The notes beneath the pieces were generated by a model. That model did not search any database. It had not been told where the DNA came from and was given only the letters and a program-made list of their open reading frames with translations. From contig JAGMAD010000001.1 in assembly GCA_023130975.1 (NCBI GenBank), positions 17,238-81,237 of the forward strand: DNA of 64,000 nucleotides, in the 5' to 3' direction. Numbering within the stretch: the first letter of the stretch is position 1; each line of letters begins with the position of its first letter. The DNA is from Candidatus Parcubacteria bacterium. Its GTDB lineage: Bacteria > Patescibacteriota > Minisyncoccia > Minisyncoccales > JAGMDC01. Both the position numbers and the translations under genes were made by a program. Below, one piece after another: positions 15,754 to 31,874 of the stretch.

Positions 15754-16665
15754 ATGAAAAAAATTATTGCTATTCTTTTAAGCACAGGTATTTTATTCAC
15801 TGTTTTATGTGCGCCTGTTTTTGTTTCAGCCACAACATCAAATAATTCTTCTGCGCAGGAACTTATCCAGACATTACAACAGCAGATTGAAAAGTTAAAA
15901 GCCCAGATAGAAGCATTAATTACACAGATAGAATCATTAAGACAAGCAAAGTTAGAAGCAAGGGAGACGACCAAAGAGATTAAAGGAACCTTAAAACTAA
16001 TCAGACATTTACGTCAGGGCATGAGTGGTGAAGATGTTAAGCTGTTGCAGGAAGTATTGGCAACAGACACAGATGTTTATCCTGAAGGACTGGTTACAGG
16101 ATATTTTGGCCCATTGACAAAAAATGCAGTAAAAAGATTTCAAAAAATAGCAGGCATTGAACAAGTTGGACTAGTCGGACCAAAAACATCAGCCAGGATT
16201 AATGAATTGCTTCTTGTGGGTGCAGGTAAATCCGGTAAAGTGCCGCCCGGTCTTTTAATTGCTCCAGGAATTAGGAAAAAAGTTGACCTTGAACTTCTTA
16301 AGCCATTACCTGGACAGAAACTTCCTCCTGGTATTGCTAAAAAATTGGGTGTAATTGGAGAAGACATTACACCGCCTGTTATTTCAAATGTTACAGCAAG
16401 TAACATTACCGGTATTTCAGCCGAAATTACTTGGACCACTGATGAGGAAGCAGACAGCAGGATCTGGTATAGCACGATATCTCCGCTTGTCACTACAACT
16501 GATTCAACCCTGGATGCAATCTCTACTGATCTTGTGTTAGATCACGAAATCACATTATCTGATCTTTTCCTGGATACTATCTACTACTTTATAGTAAATT
16601 CTACTGATGAAGCGGATAATAATGAAATCAGCGAGGAAGAAACATTTACTACACTTGCAGAGTAA
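15754..16665 (+). CDS. Secreted protein with peptidoglycan-binding domain and Fn3-like C-terminal domain
   Basis: Signal peptide, coiled coil, PG_binding_1-like block (GEDVKLLQEVL..GYFGPLTKNAVKRFQ), then ISNVTASNITGISAEITWTTDEEADSRIWY. Confidence 0.75.
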   Translation: MKKIIAILLSTGILFTVLCAPVFVSATTSNNSSAQELIQTLQQQIEKLKAQIEALITQIESLRQAKLEARETTKEIKGTLKLIRHLRQGMSGEDVKLLQEVLATDTDVYPEGLVTGYFGPLTKNAVKRFQKIAGIEQVGLVGPKTSARINELLLVGAGKSGKVPPGLLIAPGIRKKVDLELLKPLPGQKLPPGIAKKLGVIGEDITPPVISNVTASNITGISAEITWTTDEEADSRIWYSTISPLVTTTDSTLDAISTDLVLDHEITLSDLFLDTIYYFIVNSTDEADNNEISEEETFTTLAE

Positions 16666-16698
16666 AAAGAATACCTGACTCCGCAGTTATGACTTCTA

Positions 16699-16836
16699 GC
16701 CCGAGGCAACCTTGTTCTGAGCTCGTCCTGAGCTCGTCGAAGGACTGCCTCGGGCTTTTGTTTTTCATTGATAAAAACCCAAAAATGAGTTAAATTAAAA
16801 GAATGGAGGAAAATAAAAACAGAATAAAAGATTTAG
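16699..16836 (+). repeat. Duplication copy A: GC terminator hairpin, radC promoter and first 11 radC codons
   Basis: gcccgaggc...gcctcgggcttttgttttt, then attgataaaaacccaaaaatgagttaaattaaaagaATGgaggaaaataaaaacagaataaaagattta. Matches 17523-17671. Confidence 0.85.
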
Positions 16837-16861
16837 CGAAAGTTAAAAAATATTTAAAAAT

Positions 16862-17386
16862 ATGGCGACACAAGATTTAGCTAAAAAACCTAAAGACCAA
16901 ATTTATTACGCTTTTATTGATAGCCAGAATCTAAATTTAGGCATCCAAAGTTGTGGCTGGAAATTAGATTTTGCCAGATTTTATATTTATCTTAAGGATA
17001 AGTATAAAGCGGAAAAAGCGTTTTTGTTTATTGGTTATGTTGCCGGCAATGAGGCACTATACACCTTTCTACAAAAAACAGGATATATTGTTATATTTAA
17101 GCCAACATTAGAATACAAAAAGGACGATGTAGTGCATACCAAAGGCAATGTTGACGCTGAATTAGTTTTACACACAATGATAGAATACCCAAATTATGAT
17201 AAAGCGGTTATCGTTTCTGGCGATGGTGATTTTCACTGCTTAATTGAATATTTAGAACAAAAAAGAAAATTGGGACGAGTTATTATTCCGAACAGAAAGA
17301 GTTATTCTCAGCTTCTCTGGAAATTCAAAAAATATATGGATTTTATGAATAATTTAAGAAATAAACTTGAAAGACACAACAAATAA
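16862..17386 (+). CDS. NYN (LabA-like, PIN-superfamily) domain protein, copy 1
   Basis: YAFIDSQNLNLG, FLFIGY, GNVDAELVLHTM, VIVSGDGDFHCLIEYL. Paralogue of 21828-22346. Confidence 0.8.
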   Translation: MATQDLAKKPKDQIYYAFIDSQNLNLGIQSCGWKLDFARFYIYLKDKYKAEKAFLFIGYVAGNEALYTFLQKTGYIVIFKPTLEYKKDDVVHTKGNVDAELVLHTMIEYPNYDKAVIVSGDGDFHCLIEYLEQKRKLGRVIIPNRKSYSQLLWKFKKYMDFMNNLRNKLERHNK

Positions 17387-17440
17387 AAAAAGGGGTGTCG
17401 CTTTAAGGACGAAACCTTAAAGACTTTTCCCCTTCGTGAT
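17385..17440 (-). ncRNA. Candidate ~55-nt hairpin RNA convergent on NYN copy 1
   Basis: Bounded by the promoter at 17447-17474 and a hairpin plus U run (GAAGGGG..CUUUAAGG-UUUCGU-CCUUAAAG..CCCCUUUUUUU). Start is approximate. Confidence 0.4.
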
Positions 17441-17446
17441 ATATTA

Positions 17447-17474
17447 AGTATAGCAAACTGACACCCCTTGTCAA
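17447..17474 (-). promoter_or_regulatory. Sigma70-like promoter TTGACA-16-TATACT on the minus strand
   Basis: -35 at 17469-17474 and -10 at 17447-17452, read on the minus strand. Confidence 0.5.
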
Positions 17475-17522
17475 GTGGAAAATTACACTTAACCAAAAAA
17501 GAAAATAAAACTTGAATTAGTT

Positions 17523-17671
17523 TGCCCGAGGCGATTGCCTCGGGCTTTTGTTTTTGATTGCTATTGAGTACCAAAAAAACCTGTCCTGAGCCTGTCGAAG
17601 GAATTGATAAAAACCCAAAAATGAGTTAAATTAAAGTAATGGAGGAAAATAAAAACAGAATAAAGGACTTA
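17523..17671 (+). repeat. Duplication copy B: terminator hairpin plus the functional radC promoter and 5' end
   Basis: TTGATA (17604-17609), 17 nt, TAAATT (17627-17632), 6 nt, ATG 17639. Differs from copy A by two synonymous changes in the 11 shared codons. Confidence 0.85.
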
Positions 17672-18325
17672 CCCAAAGTAGAACGGCCGAGAGAGAAATT
17701 AATTTTGAAAGGGCCCGAAAATTTAAAAGATGAAGAACTTCTGGCAATTTTGCTTCGGACTGGCAGGGAAGGCAAAAATGTTTTAGATTTAGCCAAGCAG
17801 ATTTTGAATAAACATTCAAAAAAGCGTTTTTTGAAGATGAGATACGAGGATTTAATAAAAGTGAAAGGAATAAACGAAGCCAAGGCCTGCACAATTCTCG
17901 CCAGTATGGAATTAGTCAAAAGAGCCTTAAAAATCCAGGATGAAACCTTACCAATTATTAATTCTTCTAAAGATGTAATAGCTCAAGCCGTTTATTTGAG
18001 AGATAGAACTCGCGAACACCTAATGACTATTTATCTCAACGCTAGAAATGAGATGGTTTGGAAAAAACAATCGACATTTATTGGCACTTTAAATACCAAT
18101 TTAGTTCATCCCAGAGAAATTTTTCAAGAAGCTTTAAAACACAATGCCGCCTCAGTAATTTTAGTCCACAATCATCCTTCAGGAGATAGCGAGCCATCCC
18201 AAGATGACTTAGAAATAACAAAGAGAATTATTGAAGCCGGCAAAATAATGGGCATAGATGTTTTAGACCACATAATCATCACCAAAACCAAAGCATTCAG
18301 CTTCAAAGAAAAAAAGTTGATATAA
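17639..18325 (+). CDS. radC: RadC-like JAB/MPN domain protein
   Basis: IKDLPKVERPREKL N-terminus, HhH region, JAMM motif HNHPSGDSEPSQDD. Confidence 0.9.
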   Translation: MEENKNRIKDLPKVERPREKLILKGPENLKDEELLAILLRTGREGKNVLDLAKQILNKHSKKRFLKMRYEDLIKVKGINEAKACTILASMELVKRALKIQDETLPIINSSKDVIAQAVYLRDRTREHLMTIYLNARNEMVWKKQSTFIGTLNTNLVHPREIFQEALKHNAASVILVHNHPSGDSEPSQDDLEITKRIIEAGKIMGIDVLDHIIITKTKAFSFKEKKLI

Positions 18326-18360
18326 TAAACAAAATCCAAAACTAGAAATATATTAAAACT

Positions 18361-18717
18361 ATGTCAGATATAAAAAACCTAACAGAAAAAATCATAAAAT
18401 TCAGGGATGAACGCGATTGGAAACAATTCAATAATCCTAAAGATGTGGCTTTATCTTTACTTTTAGAAGCAACGGAAGTTTTGGAACATTTTCAGTGGAA
18501 GAATCCAGAAGAAATTGCAGAATATATAAAAACCAACCAAAATGAAATTGGGGAAGAATTGGCTGATGTTCTGTATTGGATTTTATTGATGAGTCATGAT
18601 CTCGAGTTGGATATCTTAGATGTGCTTGAGAAGAAAATTCAAAAAAATCAAAAAAATATCCCATTAAGAAAGCCAAAGGTAATCACACTAAATATAATAA
18701 ATTGTAACTATGCGTAA
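18361..18717 (+). CDS. MazG-like all-alpha nucleotide pyrophosphohydrolase
   Basis: FRDERDWKQFNNPKDVALSLLLEATEVLEHFQW ... GEELADVLYWILLMS (EExxE...D metal-binding helices). Confidence 0.8.
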   Translation: MSDIKNLTEKIIKFRDERDWKQFNNPKDVALSLLLEATEVLEHFQWKNPEEIAEYIKTNQNEIGEELADVLYWILLMSHDLELDILDVLEKKIQKNQKNIPLRKPKVITLNIINCNYA

Positions 18718-19855
18718 TATATTTATACTTTATATGCCGCCGGGTAACAGTGAAGTAATGGTACACTATGAAGATACTATTAAGAATAAAGTTCCGCAGG
18801 AACGGATCTTTAAGTATTTGGATTTTAATTTACAAAATAGGTTAAAAAATGTTTTTAGTAACAGATCTATTGCTGTGTGGGGATCTAGAGATTCTAGTGC
18901 TAATCGTTCGCGTTTCGAAAAAATGCAAATAGGGGACGATATATTAATCGTAGAGGGCGAAATAATCAAACTGATGGGAAAAGTGGCAGCCAAAGTAATT
19001 AGCCCTAATTTGTCGTGCGAGCTTTGGAAAAATTTAAGAGGGGAATCAACAGAGGGATGGAACCTTATTTATTTTATCGCTAACCCACTTGAGATTAATC
19101 TACCATTCAATGAATTTAAGAAGATATTTGGTTACAAACCAAGTTGGAACTTGCGTGGTTTTACGAATATTTCTGATGATAGGCTTGAGGAATTTTATGA
19201 TAAATATGATGACCTTTATTCAATTTTGCAAAAGATAAAAGGCGGAGAAAAAATTGAACAAAAACTTGAGCCAGAGTTTATCAGGGAAAAAGAAATAGAG
19301 AAAACCAGATTAGAGACGGAAGATATAGATGACATTCTGAATAATAAGGAACTCTCCGAACATATAAAAATGCAATGGAAGCTTATCCGACTTGGGTTGA
19401 AAGCTGACTCCAAGGTTTGGATTCCACGAAATGATCAGTCAAGAATAGAAAAGCAATTTGGCTTTAGGGATTTTGAGAAACAATTTGCATCTGGTATAGA
19501 TGTACCTGTGCAATATGTTGAGAATATTGATGTGGTGTGGAAGGAGGAATTTCGTATCCATGCAGCCTTCGAAATAGAGAATACAACTGCAATATATTCT
19601 GGCTTACTTCGTTTTTCTGATTTAAAAATTATAGCCCCTAACAGCCCGTATCCATTGTTTATAGTGGCTCCATTATCAAAGAAGAACCGTGTTTTTCAAC
19701 AAGTGAAGAGGCCGACATTCCGAGAACTTGGCTTTGACAAGGAAGTGCGTTACCTTGCTTATGAAGTAGTTAATGAAATTGACAAGTTTTTTGATAAATC
19801 AAAGAAGGGACTAAATGTTGAATTATTAGTAGGCAAGTCGGAAAAGGCAAGCTAG
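18710..19855 (+). CDS. Hypothetical protein, possible modification-sensing nuclease (weak call)
   Basis: Overlaps mazG-like by 8 nt. The N-terminal half looks like a small beta-barrel (AVWGSR...GDDILIVEGEIIKLMGKV). The C-terminal half has IDVVW...AAFEIENTTAIYSGLLRFSDL, reminiscent of a restriction-endonuclease-like core. No firm family. Confidence 0.3.
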   Translation: MRNIFILYMPPGNSEVMVHYEDTIKNKVPQERIFKYLDFNLQNRLKNVFSNRSIAVWGSRDSSANRSRFEKMQIGDDILIVEGEIIKLMGKVAAKVISPNLSCELWKNLRGESTEGWNLIYFIANPLEINLPFNEFKKIFGYKPSWNLRGFTNISDDRLEEFYDKYDDLYSILQKIKGGEKIEQKLEPEFIREKEIEKTRLETEDIDDILNNKELSEHIKMQWKLIRLGLKADSKVWIPRNDQSRIEKQFGFRDFEKQFASGIDVPVQYVENIDVVWKEEFRIHAAFEIENTTAIYSGLLRFSDLKIIAPNSPYPLFIVAPLSKKNRVFQQVKRPTFRELGFDKEVRYLAYEVVNEIDKFFDKSKKGLNVELLVGKSEKAS

Positions 19856-19937
19856 CTAATTAGCTAGCTGTTTTAATTTGTAGTTTTCACTAAGCGTCTG
19901 CAAAAAGGTCAAAGAATACTAAAACCAGATTGATAAA

Positions 19938-19997
19938 ATGGTATATAAACTTTACGGCTTAACAAAGGAGAAAATTAAAATTGTTGAGCAAAAATAA
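19938..19997 (+). pseudogene. Orphan C-terminal tail of a type IIG/RM-type DNA methyltransferase-like gene
   Basis: Encodes (QIDK)MVYKLYGLTKEKIKIVEQK*. This is the stereotyped ..lVYeLYGLTeeEIkiVE end of such enzymes, preceded by in-frame stops. Confidence 0.5.
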
Positions 19998-20046
19998 AAA
20001 GATGAATAAGGAGTTTTATAATTTTTAAATAATTAAAATAAAATTT

Positions 20047-21726
20047 ATGGCTACTTATCAAGATTTTTCTTTAATTAAAAAAGAGGTTGAGTTTGTTAAA
20101 AAAAGAAATGATATAGATAAATTATCTATGGCTTTTATTTTTATGGTCCTAGAGAAATTATATCCAGATATAGAACCTTTTGAGAATATTACTGATGACA
20201 CAAGAGATTTAAGTGTAGATGCTTATTATATTGATAAAAATACGAAAACAATAAATATTTTTCAATTCAAATATACTGAAAATTTTAATACAGCAAGAAA
20301 TAAAAACGCTTTAAAAGAAAAAGAAATAAACGATTTTATTATAAAATTAAAGTATATTTGGGATAGGGACGAGGAATTTATTAAAAAAGCAAATCATAAA
20401 TTAAAAGACGCAATTAAGGAAATTTGGTCAGCATTTGAAGATGGATATACTAAAACAAATATTTACTTTGTTTCTAATTATAAAGATACAATTAATGGAG
20501 GAAATATTAAGGAAATTCAAAAAAAACTTAAAAATGAATTTAGAGGAAAATTAAAAATATTATCTTTAAATGATTTAATAAAGGTTTTTATAAAAGAAGA
20601 GTTTTCTCCAGTAGATATTAAATTACAGTTAAAGGGTAAAAATTACTTTGAAGAATCAACCGGTGATGTCAGAGCGTTGATTTCAGAAGTAAATGCGTTA
20701 AATTTTTTAAAATCAATTTTAGATGAAAATGATAATTTAATTGAAGATGTGTTTAATGAAAATATTAGGGTTTATTTGCGTTCCAATACAAAAATAAATA
20801 AACAGATATATAATTCTATTGAAAGCAAAAGTAATTATAAATTTTTTTATTACAACAATGGCATTACTGCTATTTGTGATAATTTTGAACACAATTTTTC
20901 TGATAGTCCAATTGTTAATATGGATAATTTTCAAATTGTTAATGGTGGCCAAACAATGCATGCTATTTACGAAGCCTATAAAAATGGATTACAGGATAAT
21001 GTAGGAAATATTTATTTACTTTTAAGAGTTTATGAGGTTAAAAAAAATAGGGAAATTGGTCAAGATATAGCAAGATTTACAAACACTCAAAATCCTGTAA
21101 AAAATAGAGATATAATGTCAAATGATATGATTCAGGTTAAATTACAAAAAGAATTAAGAAAAGAAGGATTTTTTTATGAAAGGAAGAAATACGAATTCAG
21201 AGATCAAAAAATTGGTAATGATAAAAAAGTAGATGCAGAAAAATTAGGACAATCAATCCTTGCTTTTTATATTGACAAACCGGGTTCTGCCAAAAATAAG
21301 AAGCAAGAAATTTTTGGAAATTTTTATAATAGTATTTTTGATGAAAGCAGAATAAATAGCGATTTTGTTCTATTACCCTATCTTTTATATAAAAAGATAG
21401 ATAACGATGTTAGAGAATTTAAAGTAGAACTAAAAAGATTAGAAAAGGCGGGAAAAACGGAAAAAATGAAAACAAAAATAGAAAGAAATGGATTTTTAAA
21501 TTATGCACATTATTATTTATTATTTACATTAAAAGTATTAGCTGATAAGAACAACATTTTGTTTGAAAAGGCAAATATTACAAAAATATTTGAGAATTAC
21601 AATAAGGCAAAAGATATATTACGTAAGATAGTTGATAAGGAAAAAAAGAATCCAAAATTTTCCATGCCCTATCTTTTTAAAACAGACGATCTTGTAAAAA
21701 AGATAAAAGACAAAATTGATAAATAG
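20047..21726 (+). CDS. AIPR (abortive-infection phage resistance) family protein
   Basis: YYNNGITAICD and FQIVNGGQTMHAIY blocks as I recall for the AIPR family. 559 aa, very AT-rich. Confidence 0.55.
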   Translation: MATYQDFSLIKKEVEFVKKRNDIDKLSMAFIFMVLEKLYPDIEPFENITDDTRDLSVDAYYIDKNTKTINIFQFKYTENFNTARNKNALKEKEINDFIIKLKYIWDRDEEFIKKANHKLKDAIKEIWSAFEDGYTKTNIYFVSNYKDTINGGNIKEIQKKLKNEFRGKLKILSLNDLIKVFIKEEFSPVDIKLQLKGKNYFEESTGDVRALISEVNALNFLKSILDENDNLIEDVFNENIRVYLRSNTKINKQIYNSIESKSNYKFFYYNNGITAICDNFEHNFSDSPIVNMDNFQIVNGGQTMHAIYEAYKNGLQDNVGNIYLLLRVYEVKKNREIGQDIARFTNTQNPVKNRDIMSNDMIQVKLQKELRKEGFFYERKKYEFRDQKIGNDKKVDAEKLGQSILAFYIDKPGSAKNKKQEIFGNFYNSIFDESRINSDFVLLPYLLYKKIDNDVREFKVELKRLEKAGKTEKMKTKIERNGFLNYAHYYLLFTLKVLADKNNILFEKANITKIFENYNKAKDILRKIVDKEKKNPKFSMPYLFKTDDLVKKIKDKIDK

Positions 21727-21827
21727 GAGGTGAAAAAGGGATCAGGAACCTTTTTATAAATTAATGAATGCTGAAGAGTTAAAAGCAAAACAAAAGATTA
21801 AAGAATTAATTAAATTTAAATAAAATT

Positions 21828-22346
21828 ATGGAAAAACAAGAAAGCAATTTTGCGTTTATTGACAGTCAAAACCTTAATTTAGGAATTCAAAACTTGGGCT
21901 GGAAATTGAATTACAGAAGATTTAGAGTTTATTTAAAAGAGAAATATAAAGTATCTATAGCTTATTTGTTTATCGGCTATATTCCAGCTAATCAAGACTT
22001 ATATTCTTCATTGCAAGAAGCCGGGTATGTTTTGGTTTTCAAGCCGACGTTGCCTGATAAGAATGGAGAGGTAAAGGGTAACGTGGACGCAGATTTGGTT
22101 TTACAGGTAATGATTGATTATAAGAAATATAACAAAGCTATAATTGTTACAAGCGACGGAGATTTTTATTCTTTAGTTAAATATTTATACAAAAATGATA
22201 AACTTAGATGCGTGATAAGTCCATATATTAAAACTTGTTCGGTTTTGTTAAAAAAAACAGCTAAAGAAAAAATTGTTTTTATAGAAAATTTGCGTAAAAA
22301 ACTTGAATATAAAATGAAAAAGCACCGCGTAAGGACAAAACCTTAA
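21828..22346 (+). CDS. NYN (LabA-like) domain protein, copy 2
   Basis: FAFIDSQNLNLG, YLFIGY, GNVDADLVLQVM, IIVTSDGDFYSLVKYL. Collinear with copy 1. Confidence 0.8.
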   Translation: MEKQESNFAFIDSQNLNLGIQNLGWKLNYRRFRVYLKEKYKVSIAYLFIGYIPANQDLYSSLQEAGYVLVFKPTLPDKNGEVKGNVDADLVLQVMIDYKKYNKAIIVTSDGDFYSLVKYLYKNDKLRCVISPYIKTCSVLLKKTAKEKIVFIENLRKKLEYKMKKHRVRTKP

Positions 22347-22370
22347 AAGGTGCTTTTTCGTATGTATTCT
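22316..22370 (-). ncRNA. Candidate ~55-nt hairpin RNA convergent on NYN copy 2
   Basis: Promoter at 22377-22404, then GAAAAAGCACC-UUUUAAGG-UUUUGU-CCUUACGC-GGUGCUUUUU. Overlaps the last ~10 codons of the NYN gene antisense. Confidence 0.4.
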
Positions 22371-22376
22371 ATTATC

Positions 22377-22404
22377 AATATAGCAAACCACAGACCTTTG
22401 TCAA
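22377..22404 (-). promoter_or_regulatory. Sigma70-like promoter TTGACA-16-TATATT on the minus strand
   Basis: -35 at 22399-22404, -10 at 22377-22382. Same layout and same flanking gtttgctata as at 17447-17474. Confidence 0.5.
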
Positions 22405-22454
22405 GAGGTGAAATAAATAACCAAAATTTAGGCTGAAGTTGAGGGAAATTTAAA

Positions 22455-26031: not shown

Positions 26032-26727
26032 TTGATGATTTTAGAAAAAATGAACTACCTTGCCCCAAGGCGCAAGGTATCTCTTCGGGCAAGTTCTTTC
26101 GGCGGCTTTCATTCCCGCCGCTTGCGACGGGATATTTTCGCCACCGAAATAAAAAATAATTTATTCTTTTGTTCAGTTATAATAATATTTGTTATTTTCT
26201 TTTTAATTGACCTAATAATAGGAGATTCTCAATTATTTTTAATAATAAATAAAAAAATTGCCAATCCTTATTTGGATTGGATAGTTATTTCTATATTTTA
26301 CCCTTTATTTTCTCTTTTATTTATTGTTCCTTTAATTTGTCTTTTTAAAAAAGAATGGAGAAGAGCAAGTTTGATTGCTTTAATCTCTGGGCCGCTGAGT
26401 TATATTATAGGTGATTTTCTTAAAATTTTAATTGCCAGACCTCGACCATTTGAAGTTCTTTCTGTCAATTTATTAGGTCCTTGGCATACCACTAGTTTTT
26501 CCTTTCCTTCTACTACTACTGCCTTAGTTTTTGGCTTAGCTCTTCCATTTTTGATTTATAAAAATAAGTTTGCAGGTTTGCTTATCCCTATTTCTTTTTT
26601 AGTTGGATTTTCTGTAATTTATACAGGGTTTCACTTTCCCTTAGATGTAATGGCTGGCGCAATTCTTTCCTTAGTGCTTGTACTTTCTCTATCTATTTTT
26701 CTGACGAAGTTTAACATCAAAAAATAA
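26032..26727 (+). CDS. PAP2-family phosphatase (start uncertain)
   Basis: KILIARPRPF, SFPSTTTA, GFHFPLDVMAG PAP2 motifs. The first ~40 codons are the translated family-2 repeat element. Confidence 0.75.
   Translation: MMILEKMNYLAPRRKVSLRASSFGGFHSRRLRRDIFATEIKNNLFFCSVIIIFVIFFLIDLIIGDSQLFLIINKKIANPYLDWIVISIFYPLFSLLFIVPLICLFKKEWRRASLIALISGPLSYIIGDFLKILIARPRPFEVLSVNLLGPWHTTSFSFPSTTTALVFGLALPFLIYKNKFAGLLIPISFLVGFSVIYTGFHFPLDVMAGAILSLVLVLSLSIFLTKFNIKK
26050..26154 (+). repeat. GC-rich hairpin repeat, family 2, copy a (~105 nt)
   Basis: atgaactaccttgcc..cgggcaagttctttcggcggctttcattcccgcc..ccgaaataaaa. Aligns with 31512-31592 on the same strand. Confidence 0.7.
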
Positions 26728-31187: not shown

Positions 31188-31874
31188 TTATCGTAATTTG
31201 AAATTTACGACGAGATAACCGACGCCGAAAGGGTATTCGTATGATAAAATTTCCGGCTGCCAATTTAAACCCGAGGCCTGTAAAATTCCTAAAAGAAAAG
31301 AAAAAGAGCGCAGGCCGCATTCGCCGGCCTCTGGAAAATATTCATCTAACTTCAAAAAATTTTTAATATCTTTTTTCTTTAGATATTCAATCAATGCCTT
31401 GTCAAATTTTGGACCATCAGGATGAAGACCATAAGGACCATCTTCTTTTAAGCAGTGAGACATATCACCAGAAGCGATCAGGGCATATCTCTTTTCTTTT
31501 TCCAATTTATTATGAACTACCCTGCCCTTCAGGGCAGGGTATCCCTCCGGGCAAGTTCTTTCGACGGCTTTCATCCCGCCGCCGAAATAAAACTTTTTTC
31601 CTCGTTGATAATAAAAATCAGGAGTTTTATCAGGAATAAATAATTGCCGGCTTGGAATACGTTGCTTAGGATTTAAGAAATAAAGCGGAACGTTAAAACC
31701 CCAATCAGGATGAGGAGAGGAAATAATAATATTGTTAGGATTAGATTCCTTTAATTTTTTTCCTAAAAACTCCAAATTTTCAATTGTTTTTTTAACTTTC
31801 TCTCTATCCTCTAGCGAGCCAACTTCAGGCAAAAGCAGGGGAGGATGAGGAGAAAAGCAAGCAAAAGAAATCAT
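31188..31874 (-). CDS. Memo/LigB-superfamily protein (AmmeMemoRadiSam system protein B-like)
   Basis: FSPHPPLLLPE, IASGDMSHCL, AGECGLRSF. Located between the AMMECR1 and radical SAM partners. Confidence 0.65.
   Translation of the reverse strand: MISFACFSPHPPLLLPEVGSLEDREKVKKTIENLEFLGKKLKESNPNNIIISSPHPDWGFNVPLYFLNPKQRIPSRQLFIPDKTPDFYYQRGKKFYFGGGMKAVERTCPEGYPALKGRVVHNKLEKEKRYALIASGDMSHCLKEDGPYGLHPDGPKFDKALIEYLKKKDIKNFLKLDEYFPEAGECGLRSFSFLLGILQASGLNWQPEILSYEYPFGVGYLVVNFKLR
31512..31592 (+). repeat. GC-rich hairpin repeat, family 2, copy b (~81 nt) inside the Memo-like gene
   Basis: atgaactaccctgcccttcagggcagggtatccctccgggcaagttctttcgacggctttcatcccgccgccgaaataaaa. Translated antisense as FGGGMKAVERTCPEGYPALKGRVVH. 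Confidence 0.7.

Follow-up and report, generated by a model that had tools for sequence, protein, structure and literature searches.

Genes for a predicted NYN nuclease and a predicted convergent small RNA lie between two copies of the radC start in a Candidatus Parcubacteria genome

Organization of the locus upstream of radC

We analyzed a stretch of 64,000 nucleotides (nt), here called the window, from contig JAGMAD010000001.1 of the assembly GCA_023130975.1 (positions 17,238 to 81,237 of the forward strand; all coordinates below are those of the window unless another locus is named), which derives from a Candidatus Parcubacteria bacterium (Patescibacteriota; Minisyncoccia; Minisyncoccales; JAGMDC01). 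Upstream of radC in this window, a predicted LabA-like NYN nuclease gene (NYN1) and a convergent gene for a predicted small RNA (sRNA) lie between two copies of the radC start, designated copy A (the upstream one) and copy B (that of the intact radC). The window was compared with 80 homologous NYN loci (L010 to L089) from bacteria of the candidate phyla radiation (CPR), Omnitrophota, Chloroflexota, Nitrospirota, and others, and with 56 related radC loci from Joint Genome Institute metagenomes. L097 and L090 are strain variants of the locus and come from the same project as the window contig.

A repeat search revealed a direct repeat of 77 nt between copy A (16767 to 16843) and copy B (17603 to 17679), with 92% identity, a spacing of 836 nt, and an exact core of 33 nt. 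A second block, comprising the right arm of a hairpin and a T-run (16743 to 16773 and 17533 to 17563), is repeated over 31 nt with 90% identity and a spacing of 790 nt. The initial annotation had described a duplication of about 140 nt that covers a terminator, the radC promoter, and the first 11 radC codons. We confirmed the duplication, which amounts to about 145 nt overall, and found that its coding part extends to codon 14 rather than codon 11; the copies are, however, not simple duplicates, as they differ by a 46-nt and an approximately 35-nt indel, both involving a 20-nt motif. From the −35 hexamer to codon 8, only 2 differences occur in 60 nt, and codons 1 to 8 themselves are identical. 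In codons 9 to 14, AAA/AAG and GAT/GAC, which the initial annotation had listed for its 11 codons, are synonymous, as is GTT/GTA, and GCG/CCC is an Ala/Pro difference (copy A/copy B).

Each copy starts with a terminator on the plus strand. In copy A (16699 to 16766), the arms gcccgaggc and gcctcgggc are followed by a T-run, and the left flank and arms are homologous to the terminators of a peptidoglycan (PG)-binding protein gene in the related loci L097 and L094. The arms at 16698 to 16708 and 16746 to 16756 are 100% complementary and enclose a loop of 37 nt, which itself pairs, so that the folded copy A region forms an extended hairpin (−37.6 kcal/mol; z, −6.1). In copy B (17524 to 17602), the terminator scan found a GC-rich hairpin (17524 to 17545) followed by the T-run TTTTGTTTTT, as in an intrinsic terminator; behind these lie the native flank from the 3′ side of the PG-binding gene (ATTGCTATTGAGTACC...) and the 20-nt motif. 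This terminator region is 78% identical over 65 nt to L094 (2910 to 2974).

Downstream of each terminator is a promoter-like site, TTGATA-17-TAAATT, with a predicted score of 9/12 and with sigma-70 hexamers whose spacing falls within 16 to 18 nt. In the copy A radC 5′ unit (16767 to 16843, plus strand), the −35 hexamer is at 16768 to 16773, the −10 hexamer is at 16791 to 16796, and the ATG at 16803 opens codons 1 to 14 of a diverged radC allele. In the intact radC unit (17603 to 18325, plus strand), which is a discrete module of 723 bp, the hexamers are at 17604 to 17609 and 17627 to 17632, and the coding sequence (17639 to 18325) specifies 228 amino acids (aa). The 29-nt promoter string TTGATAAAAACCCAAAAATGAGTTAAATT is exact in copies A and B and absent elsewhere in the window, where its chance expectation is 0. 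These results agree with the earlier claim that both copies share a terminator and this promoter. The product of the intact gene scores 238.4 bits against the RadC equivalog NF000642/TIGR00608 (cutoff, 180) and carries both PF20582 (UPF0758_N) and PF04002 (RadC JAB).

The 20-nt motif, GTCCTGAGCyyGTCGAAGGA, lies within the hairpin loop in copy A (16725 to 16744) and 3′ of the hairpin in copy B (17583 to 17602), which accords with the initial description of one motif at different positions. Its core, CTGAGCNNGTCGAAGG, occurs exactly twice in the window (0.06 expected). Beyond the window, the motif had a single occurrence, in L016, among 153 loci, and a dispersed repeat family was rejected on this ground. 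An extra 11-nt tandem copy of the motif in copy A (16714 to 16733) contributes an additional stem, and the final 7 nt of the motif match the native loop of the L094 hairpin.

The radC start of copy A opens a stub open reading frame (ORF) of 25 codons (16803 to 16880, plus strand), which reads MEENKNRIKDLAKV and then continues into unrelated sequence. As described previously, it overlaps the NYN1 start at 16862, by 19 nt and in another frame. The stub matches RadC at residues 1 to 14 only; its score against RadC N termini was 67, which was reached by 0 of 500 shuffles, and a comparison of RadC N termini indicated that MEENKNRIKDL is specific to this radC lineage. We regard the stub as a radC remnant.

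NYN genes

NYN1 (16862 to 17386, plus strand) is predicted to encode a LabA-like NYN nuclease of 174 aa, and a second gene in the window, NYN2 (21828 to 22346, plus strand), encodes a protein 55% identical to it. The two score 47.9 and 45.7 bits, respectively, against Pfam PF01936 (cutoff, 24.2), the PADLOC NYN model is matched with an E value of 2e-9, and the nearest solved structure to the NYN protein is 2qip. An alignment of 20 sequences shows no variation at four predicted metal-binding acidic residues (D20, D98, D121, and D123), in accordance with the four conserved acidic residues predicted to bind a metal ion in NYN domains (PMC5499597). The same survey lists the NYN.COG1432 cluster (LabA-like, PIN-like superfamily) as "function unknown" (PMC5499597). 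Proteins of the family have 160 to 182 aa and a nuclease fold, and the subfamily is 60 to 85% identical across CPR bacteria, Omnitrophota, Chloroflexota, and others.

Genes of the family canonically start with an ATG that precedes the FIDSQ motif by 27 nt. In NYN1, AAA takes the place of this ATG, and the N terminus of the protein, MATQDLAK, is unique in the family, non-native, and similar to a short-type RadC start (cf. MKMQDVPK). A 14-nt repeat (16828 to 16841, AAGATTTAGCGAAA; 16872 to 16885, AAGATTTAGCTAAA) is translated as KDLAK in the stub and as QDLAK at the N terminus of NYN1, and deletion of 44 nt between the two repeats would join the radC start to NYN in frame. Taken together, the repeat and the radC-like N terminus suggest an earlier radC::NYN fusion or repeated events at one point.

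Of 72 loci, 26 have the NYN start at most 30 nt from the end of an upstream ORF on the same strand. In L085 (3700 to 5175), the NYN-sRNA unit is situated between the end of an xseA-like gene and xseB, and xseA and xseB normally constitute a two-gene operon. These placements imply that the NYN unit often relies on host transcription, and with the canonical start codon missing from NYN1 as well, it is plausible that copy A, which contains the sole plus-strand promoter-like site between the terminator and NYN1, now transcribes NYN1 from its leaderless-type radC promoter. We hold this promoter capture, which the initial annotation had also put forward, with moderate confidence. As to carriers of the NYN unit, matches on plasmids were at most 27% identical, phages gave no match, and a viral-contig collection gave 2 matches; plasmid or phage carriage was rejected on these weak or absent matches.

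Upstream of NYN2 is a mini-ORF (21764 to 21823, plus strand; MNAEELKAKQKIKELIKFK*), whose resemblance to the radC-derived stub had been pointed out before. Its score against RadC N termini was 44 (best, EIKAKRRIKDLPEFE), which no shuffle of 500 reached and which exceeds the 95th percentile (32.6) of 289 control windows. The mini-ORF is thus probably a second radC 5′ remnant, derived from another radC lineage, and would bring the radC-like stubs of this genome to three, all of them ending close to the same codon.

Convergent small-RNA gene

At the 3′ end of NYN1, a predicted sRNA gene occupies 17385 to 17474 on the minus strand, with a −35 hexamer TTGACA (17474 to 17469), a −10 hexamer TATACT (17452 to 17447), and a predicted transcript at approximately 17440 to 17388. 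Its promoter (11/12, with TG) is the top match between 16.5 and 18.5 kb. The RNA, of about 58 nt, begins with AUCACGAU and ends with a U-run; in the NYN1 unit, the layout is AUCACGAA, helix P1, helix P2, the hexaloop UUUCGU, and the U-run, which abuts the NYN1 stop codon. The initial annotation missed this putative gene, and the cassette is, on our reading of the sequence, larger than was described.

We built a covariance model (R1) from 33 sequences with a gapless seed alignment. The NYN1 sRNA scores 54 bits with R1 and folds at −20.3 kcal/mol (z, −4.0). The NYN2-sRNA unit (21828 to 22404) has a corresponding layout, with a convergent sRNA on the minus strand (22311 to 22363), a −10 hexamer at 22377 to 22382, and a −35 hexamer at 22399 to 22404; this sRNA is the second-best R1 match in the window (15.8 bits; E, 0.13; fold z, −6.2), and the two NYN-adjacent sites are therefore the top two. 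Of the 80 NYN loci, 71 contained a single R1 match each, invariably antisense to NYN and located at its 3′ end, and R1 gave nothing at an E value of <0.1 in 274 kb of loci without this NYN family. Across these 71 loci, a minus-strand promoter and a terminator delimit the predicted RNA, which abuts or overlaps the NYN 3′ end.

Read on the NYN strand, the 80 loci share one arrangement, which begins behind the stop codon or overlaps it: first an A-run, then a hairpin with covariation, then ATCGTGAT, and last a −10 and a −35 hexamer in reverse complement. On the opposite strand, a sigma-70 type promoter (9 to 12 of 12, mostly with exact TTGACA) is present in 64/64 parsed loci and ends 5 to 10 nt before ATCACGAT in all of them; helix P1, in 39 sequence types, then P2 and a UUUCGU-type loop follow, and a U-run stands after helix P1 in 56 of the 64. 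Pairing holds in 85.5% of cells, against 70.8% in shuffles (0 of 500 as high), and compensatory changes occur in 10 of 11 pairs, although these counts lean toward structure because the model-based alignment was fitted to R1. RNAalifold applied to a plain MAFFT alignment of the element gave no structure, the subtypes being out of register. The strand of the RNA is assigned from the promoter and the U-run, both of which are on the minus strand. Several NYN ORFs read through the element and end in ...RGSNLRTKP. A search against Rfam yielded three tRNAs only for the window and nothing relevant at E values up to 10 for 16600 to 17700, and the literature searched contained nothing relevant on an NYN-associated small RNA.

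Nucleotide homology to the nearest units, L010 and L011, covers 16884 to 17477 only (blastn); it sets in shortly after the NYN start and stops at the −35 hexamer of the sRNA promoter. Since homology stops at those limits, the NYN and sRNA genes together constitute the transferable unit. The spacer between this unit and copy B (17475 to 17523) has no homology in any fetched locus.

Variable slot and sibling loci

The left edge of the slot is marked by orthologues of a gene for a PG_binding_1 protein (15754 to 16665, plus strand; 303 aa; Pfam PF01471). Over this gene and as far as positions 16655 to 16708, the window shares 84 to 86% nucleotide identity with L094 and L097, and the L097 gene itself is 86% identical. 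In L097, the PG-binding gene is followed by the native terminator hairpin, a separate promoter and ribosome-binding site (RBS), an unrelated ORF of 137 aa, ATTGATAAAAACCC..., and radC, whose promoter and start are 100% identical to copy B (17603 to 17650); no second radC start is present. Because L097 has an unrelated gene at this place without the duplication, the NYN segment is an insertion into a variable slot between the PG-binding gene terminator and the radC promoter. The sibling comparison that the initial annotation had called for thus speaks for an insertion upstream of radC. L090 is homologous only over 17603 to 18325 (95%), from the −35 hexamer to the radC stop codon, and has unrelated genes on both sides.

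The sibling loci also inform the relationship between copies A and B. L094 and L095 retain the hairpin and a flank, ATTGCTATTAAGCATC..., that matches the sequence following hairpin B. Hairpin A is of the L094 type (GGACTGCCTCGGGC), hairpin B has a short loop like that of L097, and the sequences that flank copy A on the left and copy B on the right are both native to the 3′ region of the PG-binding gene. Furthermore, most differences between the radC codons of copy A and those of copy B, L090, and L097 are at third positions. By this pattern, the copies appear to be two alleles, each of which evolved as a working gene in a strain of its own before recombination brought them together, which is in keeping with the recombination with a diverged radC locus suggested in the initial annotation.

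radC ends as recurrent junctions

Among the 80 NYN loci, radC was found within 4 kb in two, and no radC-like stub was found upstream of NYN in any. A general linkage of NYN and radC was rejected on these grounds, and the survey for NYN genes beside radC 5′ fragments, which had been proposed as a check, lends no support to the idea of a mechanism by which NYN targets radC 5′ ends.

Extra radC 5′ or 3′ fragments were present in about a dozen of the 56 radC loci, a frequency that is not unbiased, as the scan patterns included radC termini. The 5′ stubs were found in L101 (two), L107, L118, and L153, and 3′ fragments were found in L101, L131, L139, L143, and L149 to L153. Fragments and cargo are located at 1526 to 5166 in L101, 2956 to 4669 in L107, 37 to 877 in L118, 2274 to 3745 in L131, and 4001 to 5796 in L139. 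The cargo bracketed by radC fragments includes AbiEi/AbiEii, nucleotidyltransferase, Fic, DUF3800, and metallo-β-lactamase genes and a distant NYN, and L101 shows a serial order of stub, cargo, stub, cargo, and radC. The 5′ stubs end at residue 14 in the window and at about residues 22 to 44 in L101, L107, L118, and L153; the 3′ fragments start at residues 194 to 211. From these comparisons, it is radC, not NYN, that defines the recurrent junction in related genomes.

Two radC loci deserve separate description. The radC of L144 (1076 to 2032) is interrupted near residue 175 by an insert of 282 nt with an ORF of 84 aa starting with MYCVYLIKSKADNTFYLGSTNNLRKRLKEHN, which looks by eye like a GIY-YIG nuclease and would make this a homing-endonuclease-like insertion. 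L118 (37 to 200) contains a 32-codon radC stub, a palindromic element (CCCCGTAGTGAACCGAGCTTGCCGAGGTTCTACTACTGGGG), and an intact radC without a cargo gene; the start region is repeated exactly over 18 nt.

In Parcubacteria relatives, radC ends are thus recurrent junctions for toxin-antitoxin (TA) and defense cargo, which parallels the staphylococcal hotspot discussed below without a transposase. We tentatively entertain a wider possibility, which we rate as doubtful, namely that the NYN gene and the AUCACGAU-hairpin RNA form an undescribed, widely transferred RNA-protein module for addiction or defense whose nuclease specifically recognizes the RNA, which would then be more than an antisense, and that, linked to this, radC is an integrase-free capture site in CPR bacteria. 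Small TA and defense cassettes would then accumulate at radC through recombination anchored in this conserved gene, and each event would leave a stub able to donate its promoter.

Proposed origin and alternative explanations

For the window itself, we lean, at slightly better than even chances, toward the reading that a horizontally spread two-gene NYN-sRNA unit (16844 to 17523) was recombined into the radC 5′ end via DNA of a related strain. The unit would consist of a promoterless LabA-like NYN nuclease gene and a convergent gene for an approximately 58-nt sRNA with a strong promoter and a terminator of its own. Homology within the highly conserved radC would have anchored the recombination with the related-strain DNA, a route in which we have moderate confidence, and an illegitimate join at codon 14 of radC would have completed it, in either a one-sided (homology-facilitated illegitimate) or a Campbell-like event. 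Because the incoming DNA would have supplied its own terminator, radC promoter, and radC start, radC would have been kept intact as copy B, and the resident terminator, promoter, and 14 codons would have been left upstream as the stub in copy A. A transcript of the sRNA gene would be complementary to the NYN mRNA at its 3′ end and may restrain NYN expression or activity, and we suggest, again with moderate confidence, that the pair acts as a TA-like addiction or defense module, a role that would explain its wide spread. If so, the locus would be a checkable example of how small genomes without obvious mobile-element machinery gain accessory genes by means of a conserved-gene anchor, in which duplication of its start keeps the conserved gene intact and the promoter left behind can transcribe the imported gene.

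Several points weigh against this reading. We looked for an empty-site variant with the identical PG-binding allele and did not find it among the loci compared, nor did we find the donor arrangement, with NYN directly upstream of hairpin B and no copy A. The two indels that shift the same 20-nt motif between the copies require more than one event, and the 14-nt repeat and MATQDLAK, possible traces of an older in-frame radC::NYN fusion, find no explanation in the simple model. A likeness of the stub/NYN junction (16836 to 16886) to the stop regions of PG-binding genes was not significant (55 to 527 of 1,000 shuffles as high) and was dropped as a trace of the donor arrangement. As for the RNA, the counts of G-U versus A-C pairs, 39 to 18 in P1 but 12 to 37 in P2, do not agree between the helices on the strand of the functional RNA, and the primary sequence of its single-stranded parts is strongly conserved, which purely cis-antisense action would not need.

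Site-specific integration, in which a dedicated recombinase would use an attachment (att) site in the radC 5′ end and the element would bring a replacement promoter and radC start, is an unlikely alternative, even though several features recommend it. Integrative elements act in this manner at the ends of tRNA and other genes, and so does Tn554 at att554 in staphylococcal radC. Fragments of radC ends recur in relatives, with two 5′ stubs in L101, each followed by cargo; the three radC-like stubs of the window end within a few codons of the K in IKDLPK; and radC is a known insertion hotspot elsewhere (bioRxiv 10.1101/2020.09.30.320143). However, no recombinase or transposase was found in the 836-bp interval or among the Pfam-annotated genes in about 10 kb on each side, the stub ends and 3′ fragment starts differ between loci, and an att site would have no use for the terminator and native flank of another gene that are part of the duplicated segment. 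Given that the break points vary and no recombinase is nearby, recombination anchored in a conserved gene fits better than a single att site.

We likewise consider it improbable that the terminator, promoter, and radC start were duplicated in place and that NYN was then inserted into the upstream copy, which later decayed. Such a tandem duplication would be the simplest route to a direct repeat, and the near identity of 60 nt could mean either recent duplication or gene conversion. Nevertheless, the mostly third-position, synonymous coding differences indicate two functional alleles rather than a decaying copy, hairpin A is of the L094 type whereas hairpin B is L097-like, and the native PG-binding 3′ flank is kept by copy B only. 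Both the synonymous differences and the different hairpin alleles favor recombination of the alleles of two strains over duplication in place.

It is very unlikely that the stub and the mini-ORF are functional leader peptides of the NYN genes rather than radC remnants. Both NYN genes of the window are indeed preceded by short Lys-rich ORFs, whose mutual score of 30 was reached by 30 of 1,000 shuffles; against this, no such upstream ORF was found in the 80 other NYN loci (mean score, 26.0; control mean, 25.5), and the first stub is identical to RadC of its lineage over 11 residues and is accompanied by the radC promoter.

The duplication is real and not an assembly artifact, a point that the initial annotation had named as decisive. 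Positions 16400 to 18400 are 100% identical in contigs of four samples, and a fifth sample (L155) has the PG-binding gene and then NYN1 in the same order. In Logan, a separate assembly of public read runs, contigs end at about 16796 (L156) or begin at 17606 (L004 and L006), and both break points fall inside the two 33-nt exact repeats, which is the behavior predicted of a true repeat. A chimera of two coexisting strains joined at the 33-nt repeat, for which it speaks that all contigs come from a single project and a single assembler and that the strain variants L090 and L097 co-occur in that project, is hardly credible in view of the recurrence across samples, an exact repeat shorter than the read length with unique diagnostic bases and flanks at each copy, and the Logan breaks at both copies.

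Comparison with known systems

Homology-facilitated illegitimate recombination upon DNA uptake, in which one end is anchored by homology and the other joins illegitimately so that foreign DNA is inserted beside the anchor, is described in PMC3240628. The conserved radC would serve as such an anchor here. Experiments have demonstrated that process only for some competent species and for conjugation of E. coli. The event in the window is deduced from its product alone, and no significant microhomology was found at the window joint.

Tn554-family elements insert at att554 within staphylococcal radC, an integration hotspot (bioRxiv 10.1101/2020.09.30.320143). In both cases, radC is a recurrent target, and an interrupted radC or its remnants flank imported cargo. 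Unlike Tn554, which has transposition genes, a fixed site, and a 6-bp junction near the radC 3′ end, the window has an insert of 836 bp without a recombinase, a junction at codon 14, 145 nt duplicated with a promoter and a foreign terminator among them, and an intact radC. The interval 16844 to 17602 holds only NYN1 and the sRNA gene, with neither the transposition genes nor the fixed site of the family. Tandem arrays are known from genomic islands, which leave partial duplicates of target-gene ends (tRNA 3′ ends or, for the staphylococcal cassette chromosome, rlmH), and from integron cassettes. L101 is similar in that its serial cargo units are each bounded by the same gene-end repeat, but no integrase, attC-like sites, or fixed repeat boundaries were seen at the radC loci. 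The annotated neighbors include no integrase, and the repeats are radC ends of variable length, unlike the attC ends of integron cassettes, which go with an IntI integrase and attI.

In type I TA systems, an sRNA complementary to the toxin mRNA neutralizes the toxic protein; those with convergent antisense RNAs that overlap at the 3′ end include txpA/RatA and bsrG/SR4 of B. subtilis. In type III systems, the antitoxin is a tandem-repeat RNA encoded upstream of the toxin gene on the same strand. The NYN-sRNA pair resembles type I systems in that a protein gene is paired with a predicted, strongly promoted sRNA on the opposite strand at its 3′ end, in its YUNR-like loop (UUCG), and in being a compact, widely spread two-gene module. 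It differs in that the protein is a predicted NYN nuclease of 165 to 175 aa rather than a small hydrophobic peptide and in that the single-stranded sequence of the RNA is conserved across phyla, beyond the needs of a cis-antisense RNA. The NYN proteins, with 160 to 182 aa, thus lie outside the small (less than about 60 aa) hydrophobic toxins of type I, to which exceptions of the RalR type exist, RalR/RalA being a type I system with an enzyme as the toxin (PMC4041452). A ToxIN-like type III system does not fit either, because the RNA is single and non-repeated, on the opposite strand, and downstream of NYN.

The proteins share with other LabA-like NYN proteins (NYN.COG1432) the Pfam NYN domain, the four acidic residues, and 2qip as the nearest structure. 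They are distinguished as a subfamily tied to a specific convergent sRNA, which is unmentioned in PMC5499597 and has no Rfam family. A conserved structured sRNA linked to one of the largest nuclease families of "function unknown" would offer an experimental handle on LabA-like NYN proteins.

Neighboring genes and minor observations

Defense-type genes follow radC on the plus strand (18361 to 21726), namely, a MazG-like gene, a type II restriction endonuclease-like gene (NmeDI_C), and an AbiU/AIPR gene. The restriction endonuclease-like protein has 381 aa and matches NmeDI_C and PADLOC REase_II. L090, L091, and L093 have the same conserved radC, but the genes downstream of it, for restriction-modification or proteases, are quite different there.

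A 44-nt segment at 22410 to 22453 is 95% identical to L094 (7140 to 7183) and is located a few kilobases downstream of the orthologous PG-binding gene in both genomes. It adjoins the NYN2 sRNA promoter in the window and an HNH ORF in L094. The segment could mark the edge of the variable region or represent a portable RBS/leader element; since the genes that follow it are unrelated, we do not claim it as a common right border of an island. Finally, L094 (3339 to 3466) has short matches at two further places on the minus strand of the window, 26032 to 26156 (79% over 131 nt) and 31512 to 31575 (87.5% over 64 nt), which suggests a dispersed short repeat.

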